Source: an uncultured Candidatus Brocadia sp.
Lineage (GTDB): Bacteria; Planctomycetota; Brocadiia; Brocadiales; Brocadiaceae
NCBI GenBank assembly: GCA_964490485.1
Contig: CAZBCT010000003.1
Location: 35,280-67,279, forward strand
DNA: 32,000 bases
Direction: 5' to 3'
This document shows, piece after piece, positions 3,647 through 20,644 of the stretch. The stretch's first letter is position 1, and each line of letters starts with the position of its first letter. The position numbers were made by a program, and so were the translations under genes. The notes below the pieces were generated by a model. That model was not told where the DNA came from. It ran no database searches and saw only the letters and a program-made list of their open reading frames with translations.

Positions 3647-4408
3647 ATGACCGAATCAAAAGAAATGTACGAACGATGTGAAGGATCACTAGCCTCAGTC
3701 CTCGGGCTTGCTATTCATTTCCTTGAAACGCTTCGCTTCAACCGAAAAAATCCGCAACAACTATATTCCGTTTGCCTTTACGCACGCTTACTTGAACTTG
3801 CTACTGCATGCAAAGCCCTTCTTGAAAAAAATGCAATGGTCGGCATCCCCATCCTTCTGCGTAGTATGTTTGAAGCAGACATCGATCTCACCAACTTGAT
3901 GAAGTGTTCGGATTATTACAAACGCATGTATGCTTCATTCCTCCAAGCGAAGATTCGTTTGACCAAAGAAGCTGCATCATCCAGACCAAATCCGTTTCTC
4001 GCAGAAATAAGGGCAAATCGAAATCATAAAAAGGACCTTTGCGAGACACAGGCGGAACTAGACAAACTCATTGCTGAAAAGAATGGCCCTATTAATATCC
4101 GATGTTGCGCTGAATTCGCGGGCAAACTGGATGAATACCTGTCAAATTATAATAGCCTTTGCCTCGACACCCATAACAACATCCGCTCTTTAGAGGAATG
4201 GTACATCCAGAAGCTTGCGGCTGAAGACTATCGTGTTGTCGTGTTCAAACAGTCCAAGGTGGACATTGTTCCCGCACTCATGTACATCTCGCATATCTTA
4301 CTTATTCAAACAAAATCCCTTGCTGATTTCCTTGGAACCACGGGCATTGAATTTGATAGGTACTTCACTGAATTGCAGGAGCTTGCAGATTCAGCAACGG
4401 GCGACTAA
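3647..4408 (+). CDS. Hypothetical all-alpha protein (cassette A)
   Basis: ATG 3647 is preceded by AGGAG (3636-3640). The product is 253 aa and starts MTESKEMYERCEG. The ORF-track TTG start at 3509 would read through the promoter-like region and looks too long. No motif was recognised. Confidence 0.6.
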   Translation: MTESKEMYERCEGSLASVLGLAIHFLETLRFNRKNPQQLYSVCLYARLLELATACKALLEKNAMVGIPILLRSMFEADIDLTNLMKCSDYYKRMYASFLQAKIRLTKEAASSRPNPFLAEIRANRNHKKDLCETQAELDKLIAEKNGPINIRCCAEFAGKLDEYLSNYNSLCLDTHNNIRSLEEWYIQKLAAEDYRVVVFKQSKVDIVPALMYISHILLIQTKSLADFLGTTGIEFDRYFTELQELADSATGD

Positions 4409-4420
4409 AAAGAGTGAAAC

Positions 4421-4473
4421 GGCGAACCATAAGATTGACCAGAATTTCGTCTTGTCATCCACATCTGTTATTT
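4421..4473 (+). other. attC-like element after cassette A (short, weak palindrome)
   Basis: It runs from GGCGAAC to GTTATTT over 53 nt. Partial pairings are AAC/GTT, AGAT/ATCT and TGAC/GTCA. It is shorter and less palindromic than canonical attC sites. Confidence 0.3.
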
Positions 4474-4542
4474 GGCTATAAATGCCGACAATCTTCGTGA
4501 TTATTTATGTGTATTTTTGGTATTGATGTGGGGGGAAATTTT

Positions 4543-5175
4543 ATGGATTCAATTATTACTGCTTTAGCTACCTTAGCTGCTGCATATTTTGGTGCCTTAT
4601 TTGCCTTTAAATTTCAAGAAAGAAAAGAAGAACGAAAAATTCGAACTAACAATATTGCTGCTGGGAATCGTGCTATGTTTTTACTATTCAGGCAATTCAA
4701 TGAATTATCTGGTATTCAAAAACAAATAATTGAACCTGCCAGAACACATCCGGCCAAATTTGTTGTTATGCGCCCAGCTCTTCCTTTGAATTATCAGAGT
4801 TTAAGATTTGAGGTAAGCAACTTAAGCTTCCTTCTCGAAACAAAACATCGGCAAGTTTTAATGGATTTATTAATAGAAGAAGGTAGATTTCATGCGGCAG
4901 TGCAAACTCTAAATGAGCGTTCAAAAATGCATCTCCATGATGTACAACCAGTTTTGGAAAAAGCAGGAATGGTCGAGGGCGGTGATTATTCACTGTCTCA
5001 ACTTGAAGAAGCCATGGGCAATCGTTTATTTGTACAACTTAACCGAGCTACAGATCAGATGATAGACCATATCGATGATAGTATTAAATCTCTTCTGCAA
5101 ATGAGTGATAAATTATATGAAGTATTAAAAGAATTATATCCTGGTGAAATATTTATTAAATTTAAAGCCACATAA
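4543..5175 (+). CDS. Hypothetical protein with one N-terminal transmembrane helix (cassette B)
   Basis: ATG 4543 follows GGGGGAA. The 210-aa product has the N-terminus MDSIITALATLAAAYFGALFAFKF followed by a basic stretch and a helical remainder. The gene is visibly more AT-rich than its neighbours. Confidence 0.6.
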   Translation: MDSIITALATLAAAYFGALFAFKFQERKEERKIRTNNIAAGNRAMFLLFRQFNELSGIQKQIIEPARTHPAKFVVMRPALPLNYQSLRFEVSNLSFLLETKHRQVLMDLLIEEGRFHAAVQTLNERSKMHLHDVQPVLEKAGMVEGGDYSLSQLEEAMGNRLFVQLNRATDQMIDHIDDSIKSLLQMSDKLYEVLKELYPGEIFIKFKAT

Positions 5176-5339: not shown

Positions 5340-6335
5340 ATGACTGACAGTACTGGAAAAAACAATGCCATTGTCCCAGCGCAACCACAACAGCTAGCGG
5401 TGCGTCATGTATGGCTCATCGAGAGAGGCATTCATTCGCTCCCAATTCTAGGAATAACCGAGAGCCGTGTTAAGGAATTTTGTTCAATCCTTGAGGATTC
5501 TGACTTTCTTAACCGCGAAATAACACTGAAAACAATAGTAGATATTGGGACTCACATCAGGTCATGCAGACGGCACCTTGACTCGCTCATCTTTCCGTTA
5601 GTTAAAAACTTTTACTTTTGTTTCGAAGAATCAGAGCGTGAAAGTCGTGCCAGCGGTCACGAACCTCACCCTAGAGAGCGTGAATACACTAAGCTTTCTT
5701 TCGCGGCACTGGAGGCGTTAGTCGGCCCTTTAATGAGTCCCGATGAGGCGATAATGGATATTGTATACTTTGGAACGACTGCCTCGCGCATACGTGCTAT
5801 CGACTGGCTCTCAGATAATAAACAAAGACTTACTACAGCTACCCATGACTTATTCTCTGATTATTTGCGCACGATGCTCCTTTCCACTATACAGAGCACA
5901 CCGTTATTTCTTGCACTGAAATATGCGGATGCAGAGATACACGATCATATTGAGGAAGCCATATACTTTTTTATAGACAAGATTATTCTTGAGAACATAC
6001 CACCGGACGAGCTTAAGGAAAAGGTCGGATGTTACGTTTGTGGTTTATCTTACAACGAGAAAGCCTCCCAAGAGGCTGTAATCTATGCTCTTGGCAAGTT
6101 AGCAGAATTGGGTGATCCCACATATGTGGAATGTGCCTGTGAGATGTTCTTTGTGATAGCGGAAAAGTATAGAGATTTAGACAGGTACTCTGACGATGAA
6201 CTGGAAATGATTTCCTGTGCGTATAAGAAATGTATGAAAGCCCTTTTCGCGCGGTTTTCATCTAACGGACTTGAAGTATACAAATACAAGGAACTTGTTA
6301 TGGAAGAGCTCAAACGTCGAGGATTGCATGGGTGA
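5340..6335 (+). CDS. Hypothetical alpha-helical protein with HEAT-like repeat signature (cassette C-D, first gene)
   Basis: 331-aa ORF. Segments such as AVIYALGKLAELGDPTYVE resemble HEAT/PBS-lyase-type repeats. The stop (6333-6335) overlaps the next gene's ATG (6328). Confidence 0.55.
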   Translation: MTDSTGKNNAIVPAQPQQLAVRHVWLIERGIHSLPILGITESRVKEFCSILEDSDFLNREITLKTIVDIGTHIRSCRRHLDSLIFPLVKNFYFCFEESERESRASGHEPHPREREYTKLSFAALEALVGPLMSPDEAIMDIVYFGTTASRIRAIDWLSDNKQRLTTATHDLFSDYLRTMLLSTIQSTPLFLALKYADAEIHDHIEEAIYFFIDKIILENIPPDELKEKVGCYVCGLSYNEKASQEAVIYALGKLAELGDPTYVECACEMFFVIAEKYRDLDRYSDDELEMISCAYKKCMKALFARFSSNGLEVYKYKELVMEELKRRGLHG

Positions 6336-7113
6336 ATATATGAGCGGGAGCGCACAAGGACGGCAAACGCCGGAAGATATCGAACTTGAGAGAAAACAAG
6401 AGGATCTTCGTGAACTCGAAGCAGAGTTTGCTGAAAAGGAACTTAGGCTTGCTACTTTACGCGCCGAACTGCATCACTTTGATATGCGATACATCAGGCA
6501 TGTCGGAAGCTTGTATACGGTTCTTGATGACTTGGAAGCGCAAATTGCCGAAGAGGTAGCACGCAAGCACCCTCGAAATGAACGTGCAAGGAAAATGGCA
6601 GAACATGCCCGCTCCAAAGCGCGAAAATCGGCGTCTGAAGCAACGCCATCCGATGAAACGTATGTTTCAGGAGACGAATTCAAGCCATCTGAAAGGTTGA
6701 AGGCACTTTACAGATCAGCAGCAAAGGCCATCCATCCTGACCTTGCCAGCGATAATGCCGATTGTGCGCGTCGCCACAAGGCGATGGCATCAGTAAATGA
6801 AGCATACGAAAAGGGAGACGAGAAGCGCATTAAAGCCATCATTGAGGAGTGGGAGTCTAGCCCTGAATCGGTGAAAGGCGAGGGAACTGCTGCCGGGCTT
6901 GTCCGAATAATCCGGCGTATTTCTTTAATCCGCAAGAGGCTTGACAGTATTAGAAATGAGATTGACCACCTCCAGAGTAGCTCTCTGGCACTATTGAAGC
7001 GGAAGGTTGATGCGGGACTCGCTCAAGGACGGGACATATTGAAGGAAATGGCAGTCGGAATTCAGGCAGAAATCCAGGAAGCGGAAGAGCGACTTGCTCA
7101 GATATGTCAATAG
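6328..7113 (+). CDS. Coiled-coil protein with a J-domain (HPD motif)
   Basis: LKALYRSAAKAIHPDLASDNADCARRHKAMASVNEAYEKGD is a J-domain helix II-HPD-helix III signature. It is flanked by heptad-like charged coiled-coil segments. The start is ATG 6328 (overlapping the upstream gene) or ATG 6340. Confidence 0.7.
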   Translation: MGEYMSGSAQGRQTPEDIELERKQEDLRELEAEFAEKELRLATLRAELHHFDMRYIRHVGSLYTVLDDLEAQIAEEVARKHPRNERARKMAEHARSKARKSASEATPSDETYVSGDEFKPSERLKALYRSAAKAIHPDLASDNADCARRHKAMASVNEAYEKGDEKRIKAIIEEWESSPESVKGEGTAAGLVRIIRRISLIRKRLDSIRNEIDHLQSSSLALLKRKVDAGLAQGRDILKEMAVGIQAEIQEAEERLAQICQ

Positions 7114-9933: not shown

Positions 9934-11166
9934 TTAATCCATTCTGCTTATCACAAGACATGAATTATTTCCATCATAATCCATGGTATTTATTATGACG
10001 TTCCGGATTTCTTTTTTAAAGGGTCTTTCAAGGATAAGATTCAGATTAATCTCCGGGTCTTTGTTGCAGTGATTCATGATGTGAGGTATTTGGCCTGTGT
10101 TTATTGACATGATTGATGAAATGATTTGTGCTGCACCGGCGGTTCCGTACGATTCGCCGATGGTCGATTTTATTGCAGATACCGGAATACGAACATTCCC
10201 TGTGTCGAATAACGATTGGATAGCCTTTGCCTCAACCGCATCCTGCATCTTGCATCCGTTTGCATTAGCGCTGATAAAATCAAGGTCTTCCCTTTTTACT
10301 CCAGAGTCTTCCAGCGCTTCATGCATGGCCTTTTCGGCACGACGCACCCGTATATCCGCCGAATGGTCTTTACCGCCCACGAAGGTATTCCCAAGTCCCT
10401 TTACCTCCGCATAGATATGGGCGCCCCTGTCCAGGGCGTGCTGAAGTTCTTCCAGAATAACCACGCAACTGCCTTCTGCCATGACAAAACCGTTTCTCTC
10501 TTTATCGAAAGGCAGGCTCGCCTCTCTTGTACCATCAAGACCGGACAACAAACCGCGCAGGTAAAATATGAGATACAGATCAATGGATATCTGCTCGACA
10601 CCGCCTGTCACGATTACCTTTGCCATATCGCGCTGGATCATTTTGAATGCATCTCCTATGGCATCGGTGCTTGATGTGAAACCAGCAGAAATGGTGCGCG
10701 CAAGCCCCTTCATCTTAAAGATGACCGATACGTAATTGATGGAAGAGTTTAAAGCCACATCGTAACTGAGCATGGGCGACAATTCGGAGGGATTATTTCG
10801 TATGATTTCATAAAAGTAATCGGTGGTCTCGGAAAAATTTCCCAGCGATGAACCGATGACAATGCCCATTTTCTCCGACAGGGAACCATCCGTCGGGAGC
10901 CTTGCATCGTCAATGGCCATCTTGGAAGCAGACCCCAAAAATCGTGTGCCTTTGTTCAGATACTTTAGACCTTTACTACCAAGGTATATCTCGGGTTTAA
11001 GGTCTCTTACTTCCCCGCCGAGCTTGCATTTATACGGAGAAAGGTCAAGAGAGGCCATCGGCGCAATGCCAGATTTCCCGGCGATAAGATTATCCCAAAA
11101 AACCTCTTTTCCGCATCCAAGAGGGGATACGACACCTAAACCGGTAATAACGACTCGTTTTTTCAT
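9934..11166 (-). CDS. Beta-ketoacyl synthase paralogue lacking the Cys-His-His catalytic triad (chain-length-factor-like partner)
   Basis: The product has a KAS fold (MKKRVVITGLGVVSPLG...). Aligned to the adjacent KAS, Cys becomes Phe (ISAGFTSS vs LNACSSG). His becomes Asn (ISANANG vs INAHGTG), and the second His becomes Glu (STIGESYG vs SMIGHLMG). The likely start is ATG 11166. Confidence 0.85.
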   Translation of the reverse strand: MKKRVVITGLGVVSPLGCGKEVFWDNLIAGKSGIAPMASLDLSPYKCKLGGEVRDLKPEIYLGSKGLKYLNKGTRFLGSASKMAIDDARLPTDGSLSEKMGIVIGSSLGNFSETTDYFYEIIRNNPSELSPMLSYDVALNSSINYVSVIFKMKGLARTISAGFTSSTDAIGDAFKMIQRDMAKVIVTGGVEQISIDLYLIFYLRGLLSGLDGTREASLPFDKERNGFVMAEGSCVVILEELQHALDRGAHIYAEVKGLGNTFVGGKDHSADIRVRRAEKAMHEALEDSGVKREDLDFISANANGCKMQDAVEAKAIQSLFDTGNVRIPVSAIKSTIGESYGTAGAAQIISSIMSINTGQIPHIMNHCNKDPEINLNLILERPFKKEIRNVIINTMDYDGNNSCLVISRMD

Positions 11167-11251
11167 TGCACACCCGACAAAACACGGACAAACAAAGTTT
11201 ATCCGTACCACCCAAAAAACCGCTTAAATAAAATGAAAATTCCTCTTTGCT

Positions 11252-11363
11252 GGTTCAATCGTCCTCGATTGAACCGAAACATTTGGTATAATTCCGTCTC
11301 ACTGCACAAGTTCACGCTTTAGAGTAACATTCAAATATATGGTTCAATCTGCAAGATTGAACC
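11252..11363. repeat. Two related hairpins in the KS-KS intergenic region
   Basis: GGTTCAATCG-tcct-CGATTGAACC (11252-11275) and GGTTCAATCT-gca-AGATTGAACC (11341-11363). Both are perfect 10-bp stems sharing GGTTCAAT. Confidence 0.6.
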
Positions 11364-11407
11364 AGCCTTGAGGTTTGCTTCGTCCATTCGGCAAGCTCAG
11401 GACATGC

Positions 11408-12619
11408 TTAACCCATCCTACTAAATATTGTAGTTGCATTGTTTCCGCCGAAGGCAAAGGAATTATTTAATACGTGATCCACTTTTACCTCGCGCATCAC
11501 ATTGGGTACGTAATCAAGGTCGCATTCCGGATCGGGGGTTTCGTAATTAATCGTCGGAGGAATTACTCCATGTCTCAATATCAGACAGCAGACGACTGAT
11601 TCCACGGCACTCGCTGCGCCCATAAGATGACCAATCATCGATTTGGTGGAACTGCAGGGAATCTTATATGCGTCTTCGCTAAATACGCGTTTTATAGCGG
11701 TTGTCTCGGTCTTGTCATTGTGCGGAGTTCCTGTGCCATGTGCATTGATGTACCCAATTTCCTGGGGAGAAAGCCTTGCCATCTTCAACGCATCGCTCAT
11801 GCACTTCACCGCCCCGTCACCTTCGGGATGGGGTGCGGTCATATGAAATCCATCGCAGCTTAACCCATAACCTGCCAGCTCAGCAATAATCGGTGCCCCG
11901 CGTTTTTTGGCAAATTCGTATCGTTCCATGATCAGTATCCCTGCCCCTTCGCCTATCATGAGTCCCTGGCGGTTTTTGTCGAAGGGTTGACAACGCTCAG
12001 GAGCTAAGGCCTTGAGATTATGAAAGTGGGTAAATTCCGTCTGAGGGATCATGTCACCGCCACCGACCATTACCACGTCAACCTTATTATCCACCAGGAG
12101 GTCATATGCCCAGGAAATGGCGTGATTGCCCGACGAGCAGGCGTTCAGCGAGATCATGGTTGGGCCTTCAAAATCAAAGTATTTAGACAGGACATTGGCG
12201 ATCGAATTGGGTGGGTAAACGGCAGCAACGATTTTATCGAAACCGTTATCTTTTCTCGAGGTGTCTAACCGCAAGAGTCTCTCAAACGGTGTCAATTCGG
12301 CTGCCAAGGTTCCTATGGCAATACCAAATCGCTCCCGGTTGAATTTTTTATCACCTAACAAACCACTTTCTTGCAACGCTTCCCTGGCTGCATAGTAGAC
12401 ATATTTATGGATTGTGTTTTCTTTGATCTGATTTTCTAGTTCAAAGTCCCATTGAAAATTTTTTACTTCGCAGGAACGATGCACCTTATATTTTGAGGTG
12501 TCGAAGGACTTCATTTCGTTGGCGCCGTTCCTGCCCTGGATGAATGATTCCCAGCTTTGTTTAACGCCAATCCCAATAGGTGTGACCAATCCCAATCCTG
12601 TAATTACGACCTTTGACAT
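11408..12619 (-). CDS. Beta-ketoacyl-ACP synthase, FabF/FabB (KAS I/II) type, catalytically intact
   Basis: The Cys-His-His triad is present as NACSSG, YINAHGTGTPHND and SSTKSMIGHLMGAASA, with a C-terminal FAFGGNNATTIF. The likely start is ATG 12619; the ORF track begins at TTG 12628. Confidence 0.9.
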   Translation of the reverse strand: MSKVVITGLGLVTPIGIGVKQSWESFIQGRNGANEMKSFDTSKYKVHRSCEVKNFQWDFELENQIKENTIHKYVYYAAREALQESGLLGDKKFNRERFGIAIGTLAAELTPFERLLRLDTSRKDNGFDKIVAAVYPPNSIANVLSKYFDFEGPTMISLNACSSGNHAISWAYDLLVDNKVDVVMVGGGDMIPQTEFTHFHNLKALAPERCQPFDKNRQGLMIGEGAGILIMERYEFAKKRGAPIIAELAGYGLSCDGFHMTAPHPEGDGAVKCMSDALKMARLSPQEIGYINAHGTGTPHNDKTETTAIKRVFSEDAYKIPCSSTKSMIGHLMGAASAVESVVCCLILRHGVIPPTINYETPDPECDLDYVPNVMREVKVDHVLNNSFAFGGNNATTIFSRMG

Positions 12620-12731
12620 ATATTTCAATCTTTAAACAAGAAAGGTCAACTATTCACATTAATTAATCCAACGAATATGTTGACCTTACAAACAATGCTT
12701 AACCCTCCAAAGAAAGGAGGAATTTCCGCTG

Positions 12732-14213
12732 TTAAGACGATGTCTCAATCGGCGTCAATTGTACCTTTTTCCCTGATTTTTTCGATTGTTGATATCGTTT
12801 TAATGCCTCGTCATAGAATCCTGATGTCTGCAATTCTTTGAGATTTTGGATCAGGTGTTGGTAAACGGACTGCCAATCCAGATTGACCCTGAATGCAAAC
12901 ATGGCGGCATTCATGTTATCTTTCAGCACCTCTTTCGCATTTTGGAATCTCTGCCGCAATACCTCGGTGGCATAAATTCTGTCATACAGATATTGAAATC
13001 CATCGATAAGTTCCTGAAGGGACATGTTTTTCAGGACATAGGTGAGATGATGAGACGTGTAATACTTCCAATCCTCCGGAAAGTTTGTCCTGAAAAGCCT
13101 TCCTTCGCCGTTTAACCGGTGATACAGCGGCGTATTAATGAACGGACACAAAATACCGCAGGTCATGATGTCGACATGGGAATCCAGGACAAAATCGGCA
13201 ACCTGCTTAAAGGTATCGGGGGTATCGGCATCATTGCCAAAGACCATGGTCCCCCACACGGCAAGTCCGTGTTTGCGGATATTGGCTATCGCCTCAAAAT
13301 AATTTTCAATGGAGATGCGCAAATTTACGTTCTTGTTCATCGTCTTCAATGCCTCTTCATTGATGGATTCAATCCCAATGAGCATCCCGACGCACCCGCT
13401 TTTTTTCATATATTCAAGGGTTTCATCATCTTTATAGATATTGAGCGAGGTAAACCCGAACCAGTTCTGGTAAATACCCCTTTCCACCATACCCTTGAAA
13501 AGGTCCCGAACACGCTCATTAGACTTTTTGCTGTGTCCGTAAAAATTTTCATCTGTCAGGATCAAACCGCGATATTGACCCTTGATGGATTCGAATTCAT
13601 CAAGGACGTCTTCAATAGGTCTTTCACGATATTTCCTGCCCTGAAACTGAGGCACAGAGCAGAACTCACAGCTAAACGGGCATCCGGCGGTAGTTATAAT
13701 GCCTGAATACCGGTATTTATATTTATCCTTCAAATATTTTCTATCAGGCCGCAACCCCTGATACAACTCCATGGGCGTCAGGACGCCGTCGTATCTTTTC
13801 TGGAGACACCCTTTTTCAAAATCACCAACGATTTTTTCCCAGGTAGTAACAGCTTCCCTCGTAACGACGCAGTCCACATATTTTGCCGCCTCTTCCGGAT
13901 AACTCGTTGCGTGAATACCGCCCATGATTACCGGTATGCCCCGCTTCCGGCAGGCAGTAGCTATCTGATAAGCCCGGTGGGCCTGATAACTTACCGACGT
14001 GATACCGACCAGGTCGGCTCCACCAAAGGTAATATTTCCTGTATTTTCGTCAAGTGCAAGTTCCTGGGTTTCATCGATGATATCGACTTGCCAGTGTTTT
14101 GGAGTCAATACCTTCAGATAGCCGAGATTTACCGGCATTTGATTTAATACGGAGACATTCTCCTCGCCAACATTTCCAATCGGATGTGGATTGATTAATA
14201 CAAGTCTTTTCAT
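12732..14213 (-). CDS. B12-binding-domain radical SAM enzyme (class B type)
   Basis: 493 aa. The N-terminal cobalamin-binding-like Rossmann segment (LVLINPHP...DLVGITSVSYQ...PVIMGGIHAT) is followed by the CPFSCEFC radical SAM motif and a long C-terminal helical extension. Confidence 0.9.
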   Translation of the reverse strand: MKRLVLINPHPIGNVGEENVSVLNQMPVNLGYLKVLTPKHWQVDIIDETQELALDENTGNITFGGADLVGITSVSYQAHRAYQIATACRKRGIPVIMGGIHATSYPEEAAKYVDCVVTREAVTTWEKIVGDFEKGCLQKRYDGVLTPMELYQGLRPDRKYLKDKYKYRYSGIITTAGCPFSCEFCSVPQFQGRKYRERPIEDVLDEFESIKGQYRGLILTDENFYGHSKKSNERVRDLFKGMVERGIYQNWFGFTSLNIYKDDETLEYMKKSGCVGMLIGIESINEEALKTMNKNVNLRISIENYFEAIANIRKHGLAVWGTMVFGNDADTPDTFKQVADFVLDSHVDIMTCGILCPFINTPLYHRLNGEGRLFRTNFPEDWKYYTSHHLTYVLKNMSLQELIDGFQYLYDRIYATEVLRQRFQNAKEVLKDNMNAAMFAFRVNLDWQSVYQHLIQNLKELQTSGFYDEALKRYQQSKKSGKKVQLTPIETSS

Positions 14214-14596
14214 GAACCTTCCTCTTTTTTGGGCACCAATAATACCTGGGCAATGGCATAGTCCTGGCAGTGGGATAAGGATACAGAAATATTATCAATA
14301 TGTTTCTTATCTGCCATTTCTTTTACACTTCCATACAGATTCAAATAGGGCCTGCCCATTTCGTCATTTAAGAGTTCAATATCCGTCCATTTCATTTTAC
14401 CGACCCAGCCAGTCCCCAGCGCCTTGAACAGGGCCTCTTTTGAGGCGAAACGAGCTGCAAAATGCTGATATTTGTTCTTCCTTTGTTTGCAGTATTCCAC
14501 CTCTTTTTCTGTATAAATCCTTCGCAAGAAATCCTCATTGGCGGAGAACAATTTTTCAATCCGTTTTATTTCTATAATATCAATACCAACATACAT
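14210..14596 (-). CDS. acpS: Holo-ACP synthase (4'-phosphopantetheinyl transferase)
   Basis: 128 aa with MYVGIDIIEIKRIEK...FAARFASKEALFKALGTG, typical of AcpS. Its stop overlaps the radical SAM start by 4 nt (ATGA). Confidence 0.9.
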   Translation of the reverse strand: MYVGIDIIEIKRIEKLFSANEDFLRRIYTEKEVEYCKQRKNKYQHFAARFASKEALFKALGTGWVGKMKWTDIELLNDEMGRPYLNLYGSVKEMADKKHIDNISVSLSHCQDYAIAQVLLVPKKEEGS

Positions 14597-14700: not shown

Positions 14701-14970
14701 CGACAATTTACCACCCGACAATTGCCATATAACGGACAAGGGGAGAAGGTTTGCCACCTGTTTACAGGTATAGGTAAATTCTGAATTGTTTTGAATTCTC
14801 CATAATCGCAGGGAAAGGAACTCGACGAGAATGCAAGAGAAGTCTGGAGAATTTCGACAACAAACTTCGTTCAATACCGAAAAAAAAACCTTAATGCAAA
14901 AACAGGAAACAGCTCACCCCTCTGGAGTGAAAGAAATAAATAAATTCATAGGGATATTTTTAAGAGATAG

Positions 14971-15217: not shown

Positions 15218-15996
15218 AAAGCCAAGCATCTTGTCGTAACTCTTCATCCGGCAGCAATCAGCCAAGCTTGCAAACTTCGCGATGAGGCAATCACTGCCGC
15301 AGGGCTTCGCAAGGCGCTATCGGTATTATTGGTGGCCGAGCCAGGTCTTGATGCGGAAAAGACAGCAGAGGTCCTCGGAACAAGCCGCCGAACAATTTTT
15401 CGCAAACGAGAGGAATTTCGCCATCAAGATGATGCATCGAGAAATTCTTGGGGTGGGGGTGGGCGTCGCCGTTTCTCTCTATCTATAGGGGAGGAACGGG
15501 AATTCCTTTCAGCATGGGAAGCAGCGGCAACAGCAGGTGGTGTTCTTTCTGTGCCTGCTGGGCGCCATCGCCCCACAGGCCAGTGGTTAGTCTTGCCCTG
15601 GTACGGGAGTTTAGGTATGAGTATGCAGCGGTAAGTCCGTGGGACGGAGAGATTGATCGTATGACAAGAGAAAAGATGAATACTGAAAGTATGAGTTGTT
15701 TTCTAAAACAGGTAAGTAAGGCACATCCGAATGAGTTTGATGTTATGATTGTTGATGGTGCGTCATCCCATAAAGGCAAAGAACGTAAAATTCCAAAAAA
15801 CATGGCGCTGGTGTTTTTGCCGTCATATCCTCCTGAATTGAGCCAGGCAGAGCAGATATGGAATATACTTCGGCGCGACTATTTTGCTAACAGGGTATTT
15901 GATTCTCTGGATGCAGCGACAGGGCAGGCAAAGCGGGGATTTACTATTATGGTGAAAAACAAAGAGGCAGTAAGAAATTTGACAAATTGGCATTGA
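15218..15996 (+). pseudogene. IS630-family transposase remnant (5'-truncated, internally deleted or frameshifted)
   Basis: One frame gives an HTH part (LVAEPGLDAEKTAEVLGTSRRTIFRKREEF...GGGGRRR) with no start codon. A second frame gives the DDE C-terminus (MIVDGASSHKGKE...FLPSYPPELSQAEQIWNILRRDYFANRVFDSLD). The middle of the catalytic domain is missing. Confidence 0.7.
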
Positions 15997-16048
15997 ATTG
16001 GCGACATCTTGATTGCATAATGGAATAAGATGCATTCAAATGAATACT

Positions 16049-16267
16049 AACAATCCAGTCGAAGCCTGCTATCCCAGCGACTTTTTTCTCGTCATTTTCC
16101 AGTGTCACCAAAGTGTCCATCCGTATGTCCTCAACTGCAGCCATACTATCAAACACTTTGTTCGCAAACCACTTCTCGCATATCTCATCCCAGAGATGTT
16201 CCACCGGATTGCATTGTGGGCTATAAGCGGGCAACCAAACCAACCGCATGTTTTGAGGGATTTTCAC
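16049..16267 (-). pseudogene. Second IS630-family transposase C-terminal fragment
   Basis: LVWLPAYSPQCNPVEHLWDEICEKWFANKVFDSMAAVE...GFDWIV is the C-terminal about 70 aa of an IS630-type DDE transposase. A stop lies immediately upstream. It sits tail to tail with the plus-strand remnant. Confidence 0.65.
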
Positions 16268-16448
16268 TACGTTTACTCTTTTTACCAGGATGACTACGAG
16301 ATCTTTTCAATCCTCTTGTCATACGCATCTGTCGCCTATCTCGCTCTTCACGTTGATCGTGTTGCCCATCATTTCACAGAAGCTTTTGGTCATAGCAAGC
16401 CCAATCCCGCGCCACGATATTTGCTGTGCAATCAAACCCGATGTTGTA

Positions 16449-16718
16449 TCAGTGTGTTGGTGTAATTCTTTCGATTTCATCGCCGTGCGGCGTGGTCAGA
16501 TGGACACGAATAGGCACGCCGGAAGCAGCTGCGGTCTGCAGTTCTCGCAGCGCAACCTCGTGCGTAGGGTTGTGGTGCAACAACCGGTAGATACGCGCAC
16601 TTTCAAAAAACATTACTTCGGTGTGACCCTTGGCTTCGCGCACGCGCGCGACAGTCATCCATCGCTCGCAACTGTCTTCTTTGATCAAGTTACCCTCAAC
16701 AAGTGGCCAAATTGGCAT
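16449..16718 (-). CDS. Small protein paralogous to the N-terminal domain of the adjacent protein-glutaminase homologue
   Basis: The 89-aa segment WMTVARVREAKGHTEVMFFESARIYRLL...LRELQ...PIRVHLTTPHGDEIERITP aligns at about 30% identity to residues about 9-77 of the upstream protein (ILTVAAIRSTKGAVTEILFHERQRIYTLS...LYRLQ...PVKVSLNLRRGEIERTSEP). Its start overlaps the upstream gene's end by 23 nt. Confidence 0.65.
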   Translation of the reverse strand: MPIWPLVEGNLIKEDSCERWMTVARVREAKGHTEVMFFESARIYRLLHHNPTHEVALRELQTAAASGVPIRVHLTTPHGDEIERITPTH

Positions 16719-17649
16719 AATTGATCAGGGTGGCCTCGGTGCTAACGTAGTTCGGATCGGTACTGAATCCCCCGCCATAGGACGGTGCGTACGCTGTGCC
16801 TGGCTGTATCGAGTAACTAGTAACGTGTGCATTGGCATGACAGTTCTTATTCTCCTGCGCCGCAAGCCAAGTACTAAGTAACACCGGTTTATCGAACATG
16901 CCGGGGTCGATTACCATCGCCAGCGTCAGCTTGACCGACGGCAAGCTTCTCGGTAATTTAAGCTGAAGCCGCACACGCAGCAACGGAGCTACATGGTACC
17001 ACCAGGTTACACAACAACCGCCCCATTTGTCCGCCTTTACCGCCAGCTTGTCGTTGTTAGCGGTGGCGAAGCTGAACACCTTCTCAACACAATAACCCCA
17101 TCGCTTCAGGATAATTCGCCGCATCTGGTGTGCGCGTGCATAGCAACCATCGCGCACATACTGGAACGGAATGCACGGCGGTTCTGCAGGTGGACCGGCG
17201 AGGTGACACGAAAGTTTCGCACAGAAATCGAAAATCTCCTTAGCCTTCGCGTAGTTTGGTACGATCTTCTCGCACAGCTTAAATACTGGCCACTTCAGGT
17301 ATAGGTCGGCTAAATTGAAGGTTATCGGGTCGATCTTCTCTAGCTCAATCGGCACAATTTTTTGGGGCTTCTCAAGGGGTAGGCGCTCACGTACGAGGAT
17401 TTCAAGTTCCTTTACGGACGGTTCGGACGTGCGCTCGATTTCTCCACGCCGTAGGTTTAAGCTGACCTTGACCGGCTGCTGCTTTTTGAGCGCTTCTTGC
17501 AGCCGATATAGGATTTGCTCGTCTTTGACTGTCCGTGCACTCAGCGTGTATATACGCTGTCTCTCGTGGAATAGAATCTCCGTTACTGCCCCTTTAGTAC
17601 TACGAATTGCGGCAACGGTTAAAATGTCCGATTCACGCTGGGTAGCCAT
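16696..17649 (-). CDS. Protein-glutamine glutaminase (protein-glutaminase / papain-like deamidase) homologue with a novel N-terminal domain and no signal peptide
   Basis: PCIPFQYVRDGCYARAHQMRRII, CCVTWWYHVAPLL and MVIDPGMF match, from memory, the Chryseobacterium protein-glutaminase blocks PCITFRYPVDGCYARAHKMRQIL, CCVAWSYHVAILV and IIDPSLF (Cys-His-Asp triad). A strong RBS GAGGGGAGG precedes the ATG at 17649. Confidence 0.8.
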   Translation of the reverse strand: MATQRESDILTVAAIRSTKGAVTEILFHERQRIYTLSARTVKDEQILYRLQEALKKQQPVKVSLNLRRGEIERTSEPSVKELEILVRERLPLEKPQKIVPIELEKIDPITFNLADLYLKWPVFKLCEKIVPNYAKAKEIFDFCAKLSCHLAGPPAEPPCIPFQYVRDGCYARAHQMRRIILKRWGYCVEKVFSFATANNDKLAVKADKWGGCCVTWWYHVAPLLRVRLQLKLPRSLPSVKLTLAMVIDPGMFDKPVLLSTWLAAQENKNCHANAHVTSYSIQPGTAYAPSYGGGFSTDPNYVSTEATLINYANLATC

Positions 17650-17704
17650 GTCTTACCTCCCCTCGAATAAATGATAGGAATTTGCTTTTTTAGCTTCGAA
17701 AAGT

Positions 17705-17733
17705 ATTTAATCCAAAAGCGAAAAAGATGTCAA
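17705..17733 (-). promoter_or_regulatory. Sigma70-type promoter candidate inside cassette 5, upstream of the glutaminase gene
   Basis: On the minus strand, TTGACA (17733-17728) is followed by a 17-nt spacer and TTAAAT (17710-17705). It lies about 55 nt upstream of the ATG. Confidence 0.45.
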
Positions 17734-17797
17734 GGTTTTTAATTCATTGATGCTACCATTTTGAAATATTAATAGTTACACAAATGTTGCGCATAAA

Positions 17798-17926
17798 ATA
17801 TAACACGGGTGTCACCTGCGCGAAAGGGAAAGAGTACTGAACGTTCCGAAAGCACAAAACTTGAAAAATGCACTGAACTCTGAAATTACGCTACTGCTTT
17901 TGCATCAGGTGGACGCATTGTTAGAT
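17798..17926 (-). other. attC-like imperfect palindrome after the PIN cassette
   Basis: Read on the minus strand it runs from ATCTAAC to GTTATAT over 129 nt. The outer arms ATCTAACA/ATATAACA pair, a mismatched stretch of about 7 nt follows, and then the inner box CACCTG/CAGGTG pairs. Confidence 0.5.
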
Positions 17927-18105
17927 GCTGCTGTTTGTACGGTTTTTGAAGGTAAAGATTTGATTGGATGTCCGTACTTCTGGCCGTACTCCTTTTCTTT
18001 CTTTTTTAAATCTGCACAAATCGCGCGCAAGTCAAAATTGAATCGCTGGGCATGTTTCTTGCGGGCTTCACGTACTTCTTCTACTATTGGGTCTTTCATC
18101 GTCAT
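17905..18105 (-). CDS. Putative antitoxin partner of the PIN protein
   Basis: 66 aa, MTMKDPIVEEVREARKKHAQRFNFDLRAICADLKKKEKE. Its ATG overlaps the PIN stop (ATGA). It resembles, from memory, small proteins encoded downstream of this PIN subfamily. Confidence 0.55.
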   Translation of the reverse strand: MTMKDPIVEEVREARKKHAQRFNFDLRAICADLKKKEKEYGQKYGHPIKSLPSKTVQTAASNNAST

Positions 18106-18575
18106 TCTCCTAATAACTCTTCTGGTGAACATATTGTTGGACACTGATACCCTTCGGCTTCAACCAGCGATATTATCTTTGCTTTCATTTGAGCGTTGTT
18201 TATATGTGTAAAGTTCCACGTCAAAAGATAGTCCATCCCGTTTATGGTTGCCACGGCAATATGAAGTGCATCTTCGGGGTACTGCTTCGGTATTGGCCCA
18301 TCTTTTATTAATAGCGAAGCTAAATGTTCTGCTTCATTGCTTATGGACAGAACGGGTATCTTCGAAATCGCTGATAATCTCTTCTGGGCCGCTTCGGCAT
18401 CCCCATACTCGGCTTCTTGAACAACCAATGCGGAGATATGCGGCTCAAATATCTTGAGAATCTCAGGCCATTTCTCTCGAGTAATCTCCTGACGTCCGGC
18501 TATAACCAAATCTCTGCTTGGTTTCGACGTGTAGTAGCTTACTACGCTCGTTTCGATGTAAACCGTTTCTTTCAT
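18102..18575 (-). CDS. PIN-domain (VapC-like) toxin
   Basis: 157 aa. MKETVYIETSVVSYYTSKPSRD...QEAE...EDALHIAVATINGMDYLLTWNFTHI shows a PIN-like acidic residue pattern. Confidence 0.75.
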   Translation of the reverse strand: MKETVYIETSVVSYYTSKPSRDLVIAGRQEITREKWPEILKIFEPHISALVVQEAEYGDAEAAQKRLSAISKIPVLSISNEAEHLASLLIKDGPIPKQYPEDALHIAVATINGMDYLLTWNFTHINNAQMKAKIISLVEAEGYQCPTICSPEELLGE

Positions 18576-18607
18576 ACATCCTTTGGTTTAAGAATCTGTT
18601 TCTACAC

Positions 18608-18677
18608 AGTTAACGAGAAAGCTCACTGGCGGCAATGGAGCACAGCGGAATTGCCGTCTGGTACAGCGTTGTTAGGT
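18608..18677 (-). other. attC-like element after the ParE cassette
   Basis: Read on the minus strand, ACCTAAC (overlapping the TAA stop) to GTTAACT, 70 nt, with a central 7-bp stem CGGCAAT/ATTGCCG. Confidence 0.45.
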
Positions 18678-18968
18678 TTTGATTCTGTTAATCCAATACA
18701 TTGGTTCACGGTGTAAGTGTGCAATAGCAATAACATAAATATGGCCTTTTTCAATAGAGTATAATACTTTGTAAGGAAACTTATGAAGAATATACCTTCT
18801 AATATTTTCACTTTCCTGAGAACCAATTCCTGGCATTTTTTTGATAATATTAATGGCTCTTTTGACTTCTTGTTCAAATCTTTTTCCCAAACCTGTTACT
18901 TCAATTTCATAATATTCTTTTCCATCATCAAATTCTTTTTTAGCCAATTCGTCGAATATCACTCTCAT
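18672..18968 (-). CDS. RelE/ParE-family toxin
   Basis: 98 aa. The pattern ...RRYILHKFPYKVLYSIEKGHIYVIAIAHLHREP is typical of the plasmid-stabilisation ParE/RelE fold. Confidence 0.8.
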   Translation of the reverse strand: MRVIFDELAKKEFDDGKEYYEIEVTGLGKRFEQEVKRAINIIKKMPGIGSQESENIRRYILHKFPYKVLYSIEKGHIYVIAIAHLHREPMYWINRIKT

Positions 18969-18973
18969 AAAGC

Positions 18974-19177
18974 TTATCTAAATACCTCTTCTGCAGGTAT
19001 CCCTTGTGTTTTACCTGCTCTGTAATTTTTAAGTCTTGATTCAGCTTCCTGTATCCATTTTTTTGATATCTCCGGATCTGGCTTGTCTAAGCTGGTTACC
19101 AAAGCCTCAATTAATATAATTTTGTCCTGCGGTTTTAATGCCAATGCTTTTTCAATTAATGTGTTATTAACTGACAT
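18974..19177 (-). CDS. Addiction-module antitoxin (TIGR02574-like putative addiction module component)
   Basis: 67 aa, LALKPQDKIILIEALVTSLDKPDPEISKKWIQEAESRLKNYRAGKTQGIPAEEVFR. It lies 5 nt upstream of the ParE-like gene. Confidence 0.75.
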   Translation of the reverse strand: MSVNNTLIEKALALKPQDKIILIEALVTSLDKPDPEISKKWIQEAESRLKNYRAGKTQGIPAEEVFR

Positions 19178-19206
19178 ACTTGTATTCCTTTCTAGTAATT
19201 TTTTAC

Positions 19207-19266
19207 ACCTAACGGTTTAAATCAATGGTGACTTTTTTTACCGTCCGCTGGATTTGATTGTTATAC
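19207..19266 (-). other. attC-like element after the DUF4258/DUF2283 cassette
   Basis: Read on the minus strand, GTATAAC (overlapping the TAA stop) to GTTAGGT, 60 nt. The inner pairing AATCAA/TTGATT plus GAC/GTC is weaker than in the other sites. Confidence 0.4.
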
Positions 19267-19488
19267 GATTTTTTTTAATTTAAGTATTTTGGCTTGTGAT
19301 GATTCCAATATTGAATCGCGGAGAAAAGAACTTGCCTCTAATATTTCTATACCAATTAATTCACCGCTTTCATTCAACTCAGCCGTAATATTTGGGCTTA
19401 ACTCAATGCTATCTGCTTCTTTTTCCTCAGAAATAACTATATGCAGAATATCTTCATCTTTAAAATATGCCATCTTCGTTTTATCCAT
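19261..19488 (-). CDS. DUF2283-family small protein (putative antitoxin)
   Basis: MDKTKMAYFKDEDILHIVISEEKEADSIELSPNITAELNESGELIGIEILEASSFL shows the typical DUF2283 pattern. Its start overlaps the upstream gene's stop by 8 nt. Confidence 0.7.
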   Translation of the reverse strand: MDKTKMAYFKDEDILHIVISEEKEADSIELSPNITAELNESGELIGIEILEASSFLRDSILESSQAKILKLKKIV

Positions 19489-19768
19489 ATATGAACCTTC
19501 CTGTTTTAAGTCGAAAATTAATTTGTTGACGCGTAGTAGCATGAATTGAGACAGGGATTATTTCACCTCTAAGTTGCTCATATGGAATTATAACCAGCCT
19601 ATCATCATGTTTACCTACTGCAATAAAACGTTGGGTTGCAGTATCGAAGTATATTTCTCCTGAATACCGTAATATATTTTCAATTTTTGGAAGTTCAAAT
19701 CCTCTTAATTCTGTTCTATACTTCATATAGTCAGTCCATACGATCTTTGACTCTTCAGGGGTTCTCAC
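19481..19768 (-). CDS. DUF4258-like small protein (putative toxin)
   Basis: 95 aa with a GTG start at 19768 after GGAGGGG. The assignment rests mainly on pairing with a DUF2283 protein. The family call is from memory and tentative. Confidence 0.5.
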   Translation of the reverse strand: MRTPEESKIVWTDYMKYRTELRGFELPKIENILRYSGEIYFDTATQRFIAVGKHDDRLVIIPYEQLRGEIIPVSIHATTRQQINFRLKTGRFIYG

Positions 19769-20380: not shown

Positions 20381-20644
20381 GATATAATTGACATACAAAA
20401 TCTCACTACCATAAGTTCTGACTTGTTATCATTACAAATTGAGTGATATTAAGAAAATAGGCTAAGTATTCATAAATAAATATCCCTGGGAATTTGACGT
20501 TATACCACCCTTTGTCCGCTAACCCGGCGGCTCTCTGCCACACTCCAATACCGGTGGGTTTTCCCATCTTTCGTTCGTGATTTTACACGGTGATACATGC
20601 AAGTATTTTCGCAGTTTCTCCTGCATGCGCCAATAGGGCAGAGC

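Follow-up and report, generated by a model that had tools for sequence, protein, structure and literature searches.

Why is the gene for a predicted protein deamidase followed at once, on the same strand, by a gene for what appears to be a free copy of the enzyme's own N-terminal domain? The question is raised by a two-gene cassette of 1.39 kb (positions 16394 to 17778, minus strand) within a stretch of 32,000 nucleotides from an uncultured Candidatus Brocadia sp. (contig CAZBCT010000003.1, positions 35,280 to 67,279), the whole of which is termed the window here. The cassette comprises a promoter region, the enzyme gene, the small gene and approximately 55 nt of 3′ flank, and has 90% identity to positions 5679 to 7065 of the Candidatus Brocadia carolinensis locus used for comparison (L001). 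An earlier interpretation of the window, referred to below as the sequence-only reading, pictured an enzyme checked in cis by its N-terminal domain, with the small copy acting in trans, and saw in this a toxin-antitoxin-like or defense module. As a matter of homology and fold the picture has held up; its toxin-antitoxin and defense framing has not. The answer favored here, with confidence a little better than even, is that the pair consists of a zymogen-like protein-glutaminase and a propeptide-like protein, encoded in the same operon, that acts in trans as an inhibitor or regulatory subunit.

A protein-glutaminase relative with zymogen-like architecture

The first gene of the cassette (16696 to 17649, minus strand) encodes a 317 amino acid protein that Pfam, PDB, AlphaFold2 and Foldseek comparisons place in the protein-glutaminase (PG) family, with a zymogen-like architecture and no signal peptide. 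Profile searches back the fold that had been proposed for it from sequence inspection. Its score with the Pfam model PF18626, Gln_deamidase_2, is 77.5 bits (E=1e-21; gathering cutoff 25 bits), and it matches the crystallized pro-form of the enzyme, pro-protein-glutaminase (pro-PG; PDB 3a54/3a56), with E=4e-23. With NCBIfam NF040782, the equivalog model for Chryseobacterium PG, it scores 121.9 bits, under the cutoff of 250 bits. More than 1000 relatives are present in databases, and conservation is given below for an alignment of 81 homologues that also served as input for the AlphaFold2 model of the enzyme.

The Cys-His-Asp triad was correctly located in the sequence-only reading. C169 in DGCYARAH (codon 17143 to 17145), H219 in YHVA (16993 to 16995) and D248 in IDP (16906 to 16908) align exactly with chain residues 156, 197 and 217 of 3a54/3a56, the published PG triad being Cys156/His197/Asp217 (PMC4214742), and all three are invariant. 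A stop codon lies one codon 5′ of the enzyme's ATG (the stop-to-stop open reading frame, ORF, has 318 codons) and the N-terminal residues are hydrophilic, so that the enzyme cannot carry a signal peptide, the absence of which had also been pointed out. Judged by sequence, the enzyme is a cytoplasmic relative of PG, a papain/transglutaminase-fold Cys-His-Asp deamidase for which deamidation of protein-bound glutamine is predicted. Its non-catalytic cysteines C126, C148, C159, C187, C212, C213, C270 and C317 are also invariant, and C143 is nearly so; most of these conserved cysteines correspond to cysteines of secreted PG, though the enzyme is supposedly cytoplasmic.

Foldseek, the use of which on both proteins had been suggested in the sequence-only reading, matched the enzyme to full-length pro-PG and the small protein to the pro-PG pro-region. 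The enzyme model (mean predicted local distance difference test score, pLDDT, 91.4; predicted template-modeling score, pTM, 0.90) has no disordered linker. Its best PDB match is full-length pro-PG, 3a56, over 317 columns (template-modeling score TMt 0.79, E=8e-20), with pro-FBPG, 8z3i, another of the best, and mature PG by itself covers half of the model (TMq 0.49). The full-length match makes the enzyme a pro-PG homologue that is without a signal peptide. Residues 1–76 (17422 to 17649) form an N-terminal domain with an oligonucleotide/oligosaccharide-binding (OB)-like fold, homologous to both the PG pro-region and the small protein; the HMMER alignment of enzyme residues 22–81 with pro-PG residues 38–96 is weak. 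The catalytic domain, as delimited by PDB alignment and conservation, occupies residues 126–317 (16699 to 17274).

The small gene and its product

The start of the second gene has been revised. The longest ORF begins at an ATG at 16718 and gives 89 amino acids with a 23-nt overlap of the enzyme gene, and this was the gene model initially adopted. However, there is no ribosome binding site at that ATG, which in Ca. Brocadia carolinensis is ACG. The TTG at 16688, which is GTG in that species, has the ribosome binding site GAGGG (16693 to 16697) in front of it, overlapping the TGA stop codon of the enzyme gene, and database gene calls for the small protein likewise have 79 amino acids. The small gene (16449 to 16688, minus strand) thus most likely starts at the TTG, to judge from these sequence comparisons, and encodes 79 amino acids after a gap of 7 nt and with no overlap; with such spacing, translation of the two genes is probably coupled.

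The proposal that the enzyme's N-terminal domain and the small protein are paralogous has stood, and the relationship is closer than the 30% or so identity first estimated by eye. BLASTP gives 40% identity over 67 amino acids (E=8e-10), and profile-profile comparison with hhalign gives a probability of 95.9% (E=5e-9). A hidden Markov model (HMM) of the small family, built from 67 small-protein sequences from which the column counts below are also taken, matches residues 38–96 of the crystallized pro-region in 3a56 with 28 bits (E=7.6e-11 as a single comparison), which is a stronger match than that shown by the enzyme's own N-terminal domain. The AlphaFold2 model of the small protein (pLDDT 89.1) has the same order of strands and helix as that domain, and its top PDB matches are pro-PG chains (TMq 0.78–0.79, root-mean-square deviation 1.6–2.5 Å). 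No Pfam or NCBIfam model matched the small protein, and no recognizable DNA-binding or antitoxin domain was found in it. The family to which it belongs has 240 representative clusters, and the best 150 of the 240 are all stand-alone proteins of 50–140 amino acids. On the profile comparisons and the predicted structure, the second gene encodes a free-standing paralogue of the enzyme's own N-terminal domain, and so of the PG pro-region.

Pairing and matched localization across the family

Genome loci numbering 68 were examined, from Planctomycetota, Proteobacteria, Verrucomicrobia, Chloroflexi, Nitrospirae, Acidobacteria, Actinobacteria, Cyanobacteria, Gemmatimonadetes, Chlorobi and Bacteroidetes. 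The small gene is 0–200 nt downstream of the enzyme gene, and on the same strand, in 65 of them. One locus (L063) has a diverged copy, and in another the contig stops at the enzyme's stop codon (L015), so that pairing is testable in 67. In the Pyrinomonadaceae locus L027 (6936 to 9975), the small gene sits at the end of the contig, with the enzyme gene 2.9 kb upstream of it, and there may have been an insertion between the two. The sequence-only reading had made its proposal depend on conservation of the small ORF along with the large one; the two co-occur in all 67 testable loci, in more than ten phyla, which is essentially 100%. Clustering of the flanking ORFs of the 68 loci yielded no third conserved gene. 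Two clusters, present in 63 and 20 loci, consist of shadow ORFs on the strand opposite the enzyme gene.

The localization of the two products is also matched. Neither protein has a signal peptide in 53 loci, and both have one in 11. The loci where both have a signal peptide or lipobox are those of Bacteroidetes and two deltaproteobacterial loci, and elsewhere neither has. Five Bacteroidetes loci (within L059–L064) have a gene for a Por_Secre_tail protein, with its type IX secretion system (T9SS) sorting domain, upstream of the exported PG pair. A Chryseobacterium PG locus (L069) has, 70 nt downstream, a gene for a lipoprotein of 103 amino acids that the small-family HMM recognizes with E=3e-10 and whose counterpart of the loop discussed in the next section is ISAQ. 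It is consistent with a protein described as hypothetical and as having its promoter in common with PG, with a 22 amino acid signal peptide followed by 80 amino acids, for which a role in secretion was proposed (PMC6132073). The PG gene of this same locus (3693 to 4651) is called as two ORFs with a 13-nt overlap, the first for a 106 amino acid lipoprotein (the pro-region) and the second for 216 amino acids (the catalytic domain), which points to a frameshift, to pseudogene formation or to an error in the sequence.

The loop aligned with pro-PG Ala47

In the enzyme's N-terminal domain and in the small protein alike, conservation is highest in a loop. In the enzyme it is the β2-β3 loop HERQR (17554 to 17568), located between strands 24–27 and 33–36 of the AlphaFold2 model, and its Gln31 (17557 to 17559) aligns in the HMMER comparison with position 47 of pro-PG, which is Ala in 3a56 and Gln in 3a54, an A47Q mutant. 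In the small protein it is E-S-A-R (16593 to 16604), which the HMM alignment matches to LTAQ of 3a56 such that its Ala falls on Ala47. Both placements on 3a56 Ala47 come from sequence and fold alignment alone. Ala47 of pro-PG is reportedly, from the 2011 work of Hashizume et al., just above the catalytic pocket and a mimic of substrate, and the A47Q crystals are said to represent an enzyme-substrate complex and an S-acyl intermediate; the PDB titles of 3a54/3a55 establish just that the A47Q mutant exists.

With this in mind, the way in which the favored zymogen-like arrangement would work can be outlined. The OB-like N-terminal domain of the enzyme would pack on the catalytic domain as the pro-PG pro-region does, with the HERQR loop and its Gln31 placed where pro-PG holds Ala47 over the catalytic pocket. 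The 79 amino acid protein, as a free paralogue whose E-S-A-R loop has Ala as in the crystallized inhibitory loop, would most likely bind the same cleft in trans and may serve as a dedicated inhibitor or as a regulatory subunit. Deamidase activity would thereby be restrained in whichever compartment the enzyme occupies, with a logic like that of the Streptococcus pyogenes protease SpeB and its inhibitor Spi. The cleaved PG propeptide co-purifies bound to the mature enzyme and its removal needs 4 M urea (PMC13139226), which supports the ability of a free PG pro-domain to bind mature enzyme.

Other observations weigh against this scheme. The segment that joins the two domains, residues 71–130, is conserved and confidently folded in the model (pLDDT 90–95). 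As there is no low-confidence linker and residues 100–126 are highly conserved, the cis domain may never be cleaved, which would leave a trans copy with no obvious route to the cleft. Moreover, strong inhibition is not a feature of every pro-domain, since the Bacteroides helcogenes pro-PG needs no cleavage to be active (PMC13139226).

An apparently non-cleavable cis domain would be more at home with a small protein that inhibits nothing. Such a partner might be a folding helper in trans, a pro-domain-type chaperone, or a structural subunit, in a pair with the cis N-terminal domain or in a hetero-oligomer, by which the choice of substrate is tuned. Strict co-occurrence and co-localization are as expected for it, and Foldseek finds that the OB-like fold of the small protein resembles the oligomerizing B subunits of AB5 toxins. 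But the best-conserved element is the very loop that enters the active site in pro-PG, which would not be expected of a scaffold. The Ser of the loop is present in 67 of the 67 small-protein sequences and the Ala in 64, and among database representatives Ala is present in 119 of 130 with Gln or Glu in none, a systematic choice that fits a non-reactive pseudo-substrate. A non-inhibitory role is considered unlikely, though it deserves to be kept in mind.

The same residue bears on whether the small protein could be the physiological substrate of the enzyme, or a decoy for it, as might be thought from the adjacency of its gene and its relatedness to a substrate-mimicking loop. No alignment column of the small family has a conserved Gln, the highest count being 13 of 67, and at the loop position, where Ala predominates, Gln is never found among the representatives. 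This idea is very improbable, and was rejected because the family is without a conserved Gln.

Returning to the cis domain of the zymogen-like enzyme, the 81 homologues have at the position of Ala47 Gln in 53, Glu in 19, Ala in 6 and His in 3. Gln is present in 40 of the 53 cytoplasmic loci versus 0 of the 11 exported loci, where there is Ala or Glu instead (Fisher p=3e-6, with kinship between loci ignored). Enzymes with Glu often have as nearest relative one with Gln, with up to 93% identity, from which it follows that the two have been exchanged repeatedly, at least 5 times between close relatives. It may be that in the cytoplasmic lineage Gln31 is a built-in substrate that is deamidated to Glu, or trapped as a thioester on Cys169, and so functions as a single-turnover switch or timer. 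A change of this type could alter the grip of the cis pro-domain on the cleft. Either the trans paralogue, with its Ala, would then take over control or the enzyme would be set free to act on targets in the cell, and the cassette as a whole would be an effector-immunity module that is horizontally mobile and gated by deamidation. The distribution of Gln between cytoplasmic and exported loci, the Gln/Glu swaps and the near-universal Ala of the trans copy all fit self-deamidation of Gln31, but it is a speculation for which the present level of confidence is low.

The cassette and its surroundings

Expression signals can be discerned ahead of the enzyme gene. Those noted in the sequence-only reading are a ribosome binding site, GAGGGGAGG (17656 to 17664), which is indeed present 6 nt before the ATG, and a promoter-like TTGACA (17733 to 17728) separated by a 17-nt spacer from TTAAAT (17710 to 17705). 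The latter is present and is identical in B. carolinensis, but a scan of the cassette for consensus promoters returned 0 sites, as this sequence fails the −10 criteria. The approximately 95 nt upstream that include both signals, and the promoter and 5′ untranslated regions (window 17640 to 17778 versus L001 5679 to 5810), are ~100% identical in B. carolinensis, in comparison with 90% for the coding region, which hints at a conserved regulatory element. No terminator was found by a scan after the small gene, where the predicted folding of the 3′ flank is no more stable than that of shuffled sequence (z=0.7), and an Rfam scan of 16250 to 17900 returned nothing.

The surroundings of the cassette bear on the idea of a toxin-antitoxin-like or defense module. 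Under this idea growth would be arrested by the deamidase, the toxin, unless its cis domain and the small protein, a labile antitoxin or immunity factor, kept it in check; stress or infection would release it. The compact and tightly coupled two-gene operon has the right form, and it is evidently mobile: in B. carolinensis the cassette is on the other side of a shared cluster with ketoacyl synthase (KAS) and radical S-adenosylmethionine (SAM) enzyme genes and in opposite orientation, identity across phyla is 58–72%, and some metagenome-assembled genomes (MAGs) have two copies. In the window the cassette (GC 0.52–0.55) is part of an otherwise AT-rich island where it adjoins IS630-type fragments and a run of PIN, ParE/antitoxin and DUF2283 genes, for which the Pfam matches (PIN, ParE with Unstab_antitox, DUF2283) agree with the toxin-antitoxin neighbors first reported.

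Set against this, the pair also occurs as two exported lipoproteins and beside the secreted Chryseobacterium enzyme. The immediate neighbors (122 flanking proteins of the 68 loci) are diverse and mostly housekeeping, with no enriched toxin-antitoxin, defense or mobile-element families; the link is seen only in this window. There is also no third conserved gene, and PADLOC gave no match for the two proteins or for three neighboring ORFs. The small protein looks to be a stable, folded OB-like domain without a DNA-binding module, and the enzyme gene comes first. A likeness to integron cassettes had been suggested, but there are no attC-type repeats at 16394 or 17778, and the ORFs of the window that were scanned include no integrase. 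The case for a toxin-antitoxin or defense module thus draws only on the mobility of the cassette and its neighborhood in this window, with the exported pairs weakening it further, and such a module is decidedly unlikely.

The MAGs with two copies are a pair of betaproteobacterial ones (L007/L008 and L010/L011), each with the copies on different contigs. The duplicates have equal identity to the query and equal small-protein scores, in keeping with either a recent duplication or carriage on a mobile element.

Directly 3′ of the cassette are degenerate IS630-type transposase fragments (Pfam DDE_3) on opposite strands, 15448 to 15996 on the plus strand and 15947 to 16267 on the minus strand, that overlap at 15947 to 15996. 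On its other side is the run of small modules (17905 to 19768, minus strand; GC 0.31–0.44), made up, by Pfam, of a PIN gene (18102 to 18575) with a 79 amino acid ORF downstream (17905 to 18144), Unstab_antitox (18974 to 19177) with ParE (18672 to 18968), and a 95 amino acid ORF (19481 to 19768) with DUF2283 (19261 to 19542). The PIN gene comes before its small partner ORF, whereas in vapBC the order is usually the opposite. An 18-nt inverted repeat (14942 to 14959 and 20478 to 20495; 89% complementary) flanks the accessory island of ~5.5 kb and could mark its ends or be due to chance. Beside the island is a lipid-type biosynthetic cluster (9934 to 14596), with two ketoacyl synthases, a B12-binding radical SAM enzyme and a 4′-phosphopantetheinyl transferase, that is 87–88% conserved with B. 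carolinensis.

Relevance

Protein-glutaminase is a commercial food enzyme, but the partner gene to which it is universally linked had so far gone unrecognized as a paralogue of its pro-domain. One genome paper noted the co-promoted hypothetical protein and guessed at a role in secretion (PMC6132073), and literature searches found no account of the PG and small-gene pair. What is new is the pairing of enzyme and propeptide paralogue for a protein deamidase and its conservation across the family; the arrangement itself is known from SpeB-Spi. A natural dedicated inhibitor or helper, if that is what the small protein is, would be relevant for the production and control of PG. For an intracellular protein deamidase with a zymogen-like lock, a wide and horizontal spread and no known targets, the contrast between Gln/Glu in cis and Ala in trans provides a simple, testable handle on regulation.

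Comparison with known systems

Among the closest known systems, the PG of Chryseobacterium proteolyticum (3a56, 3a54, 2zk9; EC 3.5.1.44) has the same catalytic domain, exactly the same triad and a pro-region of the same fold and placement. A small pro-domain paralogue is likewise encoded just downstream in a Chryseobacterium locus (PMC6132073). In contrast to the C. proteolyticum enzyme, the window enzyme lacks a signal peptide, is ~25–33% identical and has an NF040782 score of 122 bits against the equivalog 250. Its loop residue is Gln where that of PG is Ala, and its inter-domain segment, being conserved and confidently folded, has no obvious cleavable linker.

With type II toxin-antitoxin systems the resemblance is that of a small, bicistronic mobile unit, in this window among toxin-antitoxin genes. 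The differences are that the small protein is without a DNA-binding domain, that the enzyme carries a putative inhibitory domain in cis, and that the PG pair also exists in exported forms and in other neighborhoods with no link to defense or mobile elements.

Further systems for comparison are cysteine-hydrolase zymogens with a dedicated inhibitor encoded in the same operon, such as staphopain-staphostatin and Bacteroides Bfp-Bfi; both members of the latter are predicted lipoproteins or exported (PMC2873492), as with the exported PG pairs. Staphostatin and Bfi are, however, lipocalin-like and unrelated to a pro-region, unlike the small protein. SpeB-Spi, overlooked when the architecture was described as without precedent, is relevant here. 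SpeB is a C10 papain-like protease with a pro-domain, and the adjacent, co-transcribed gene encodes a homologue of that domain, Spi, which is a propeptide-analogue inhibitor (PMC2873492). The small gene of the window is similarly adjacent, co-oriented and conserved, and its product is homologous to the enzyme's pro-region. The enzymes differ, one being a deamidase and the other a protease, and while SpeB is secreted, with Spi thought to protect the cell from misplaced protease, the two members of the PG pair share one compartment in every lineage. Spi is an inhibitor, and by analogy inhibition by the small protein is predicted. If this is correct, the placing of a propeptide-like inhibitor gene beside that for its enzyme would be a principle that extends from proteases to protein deamidases.

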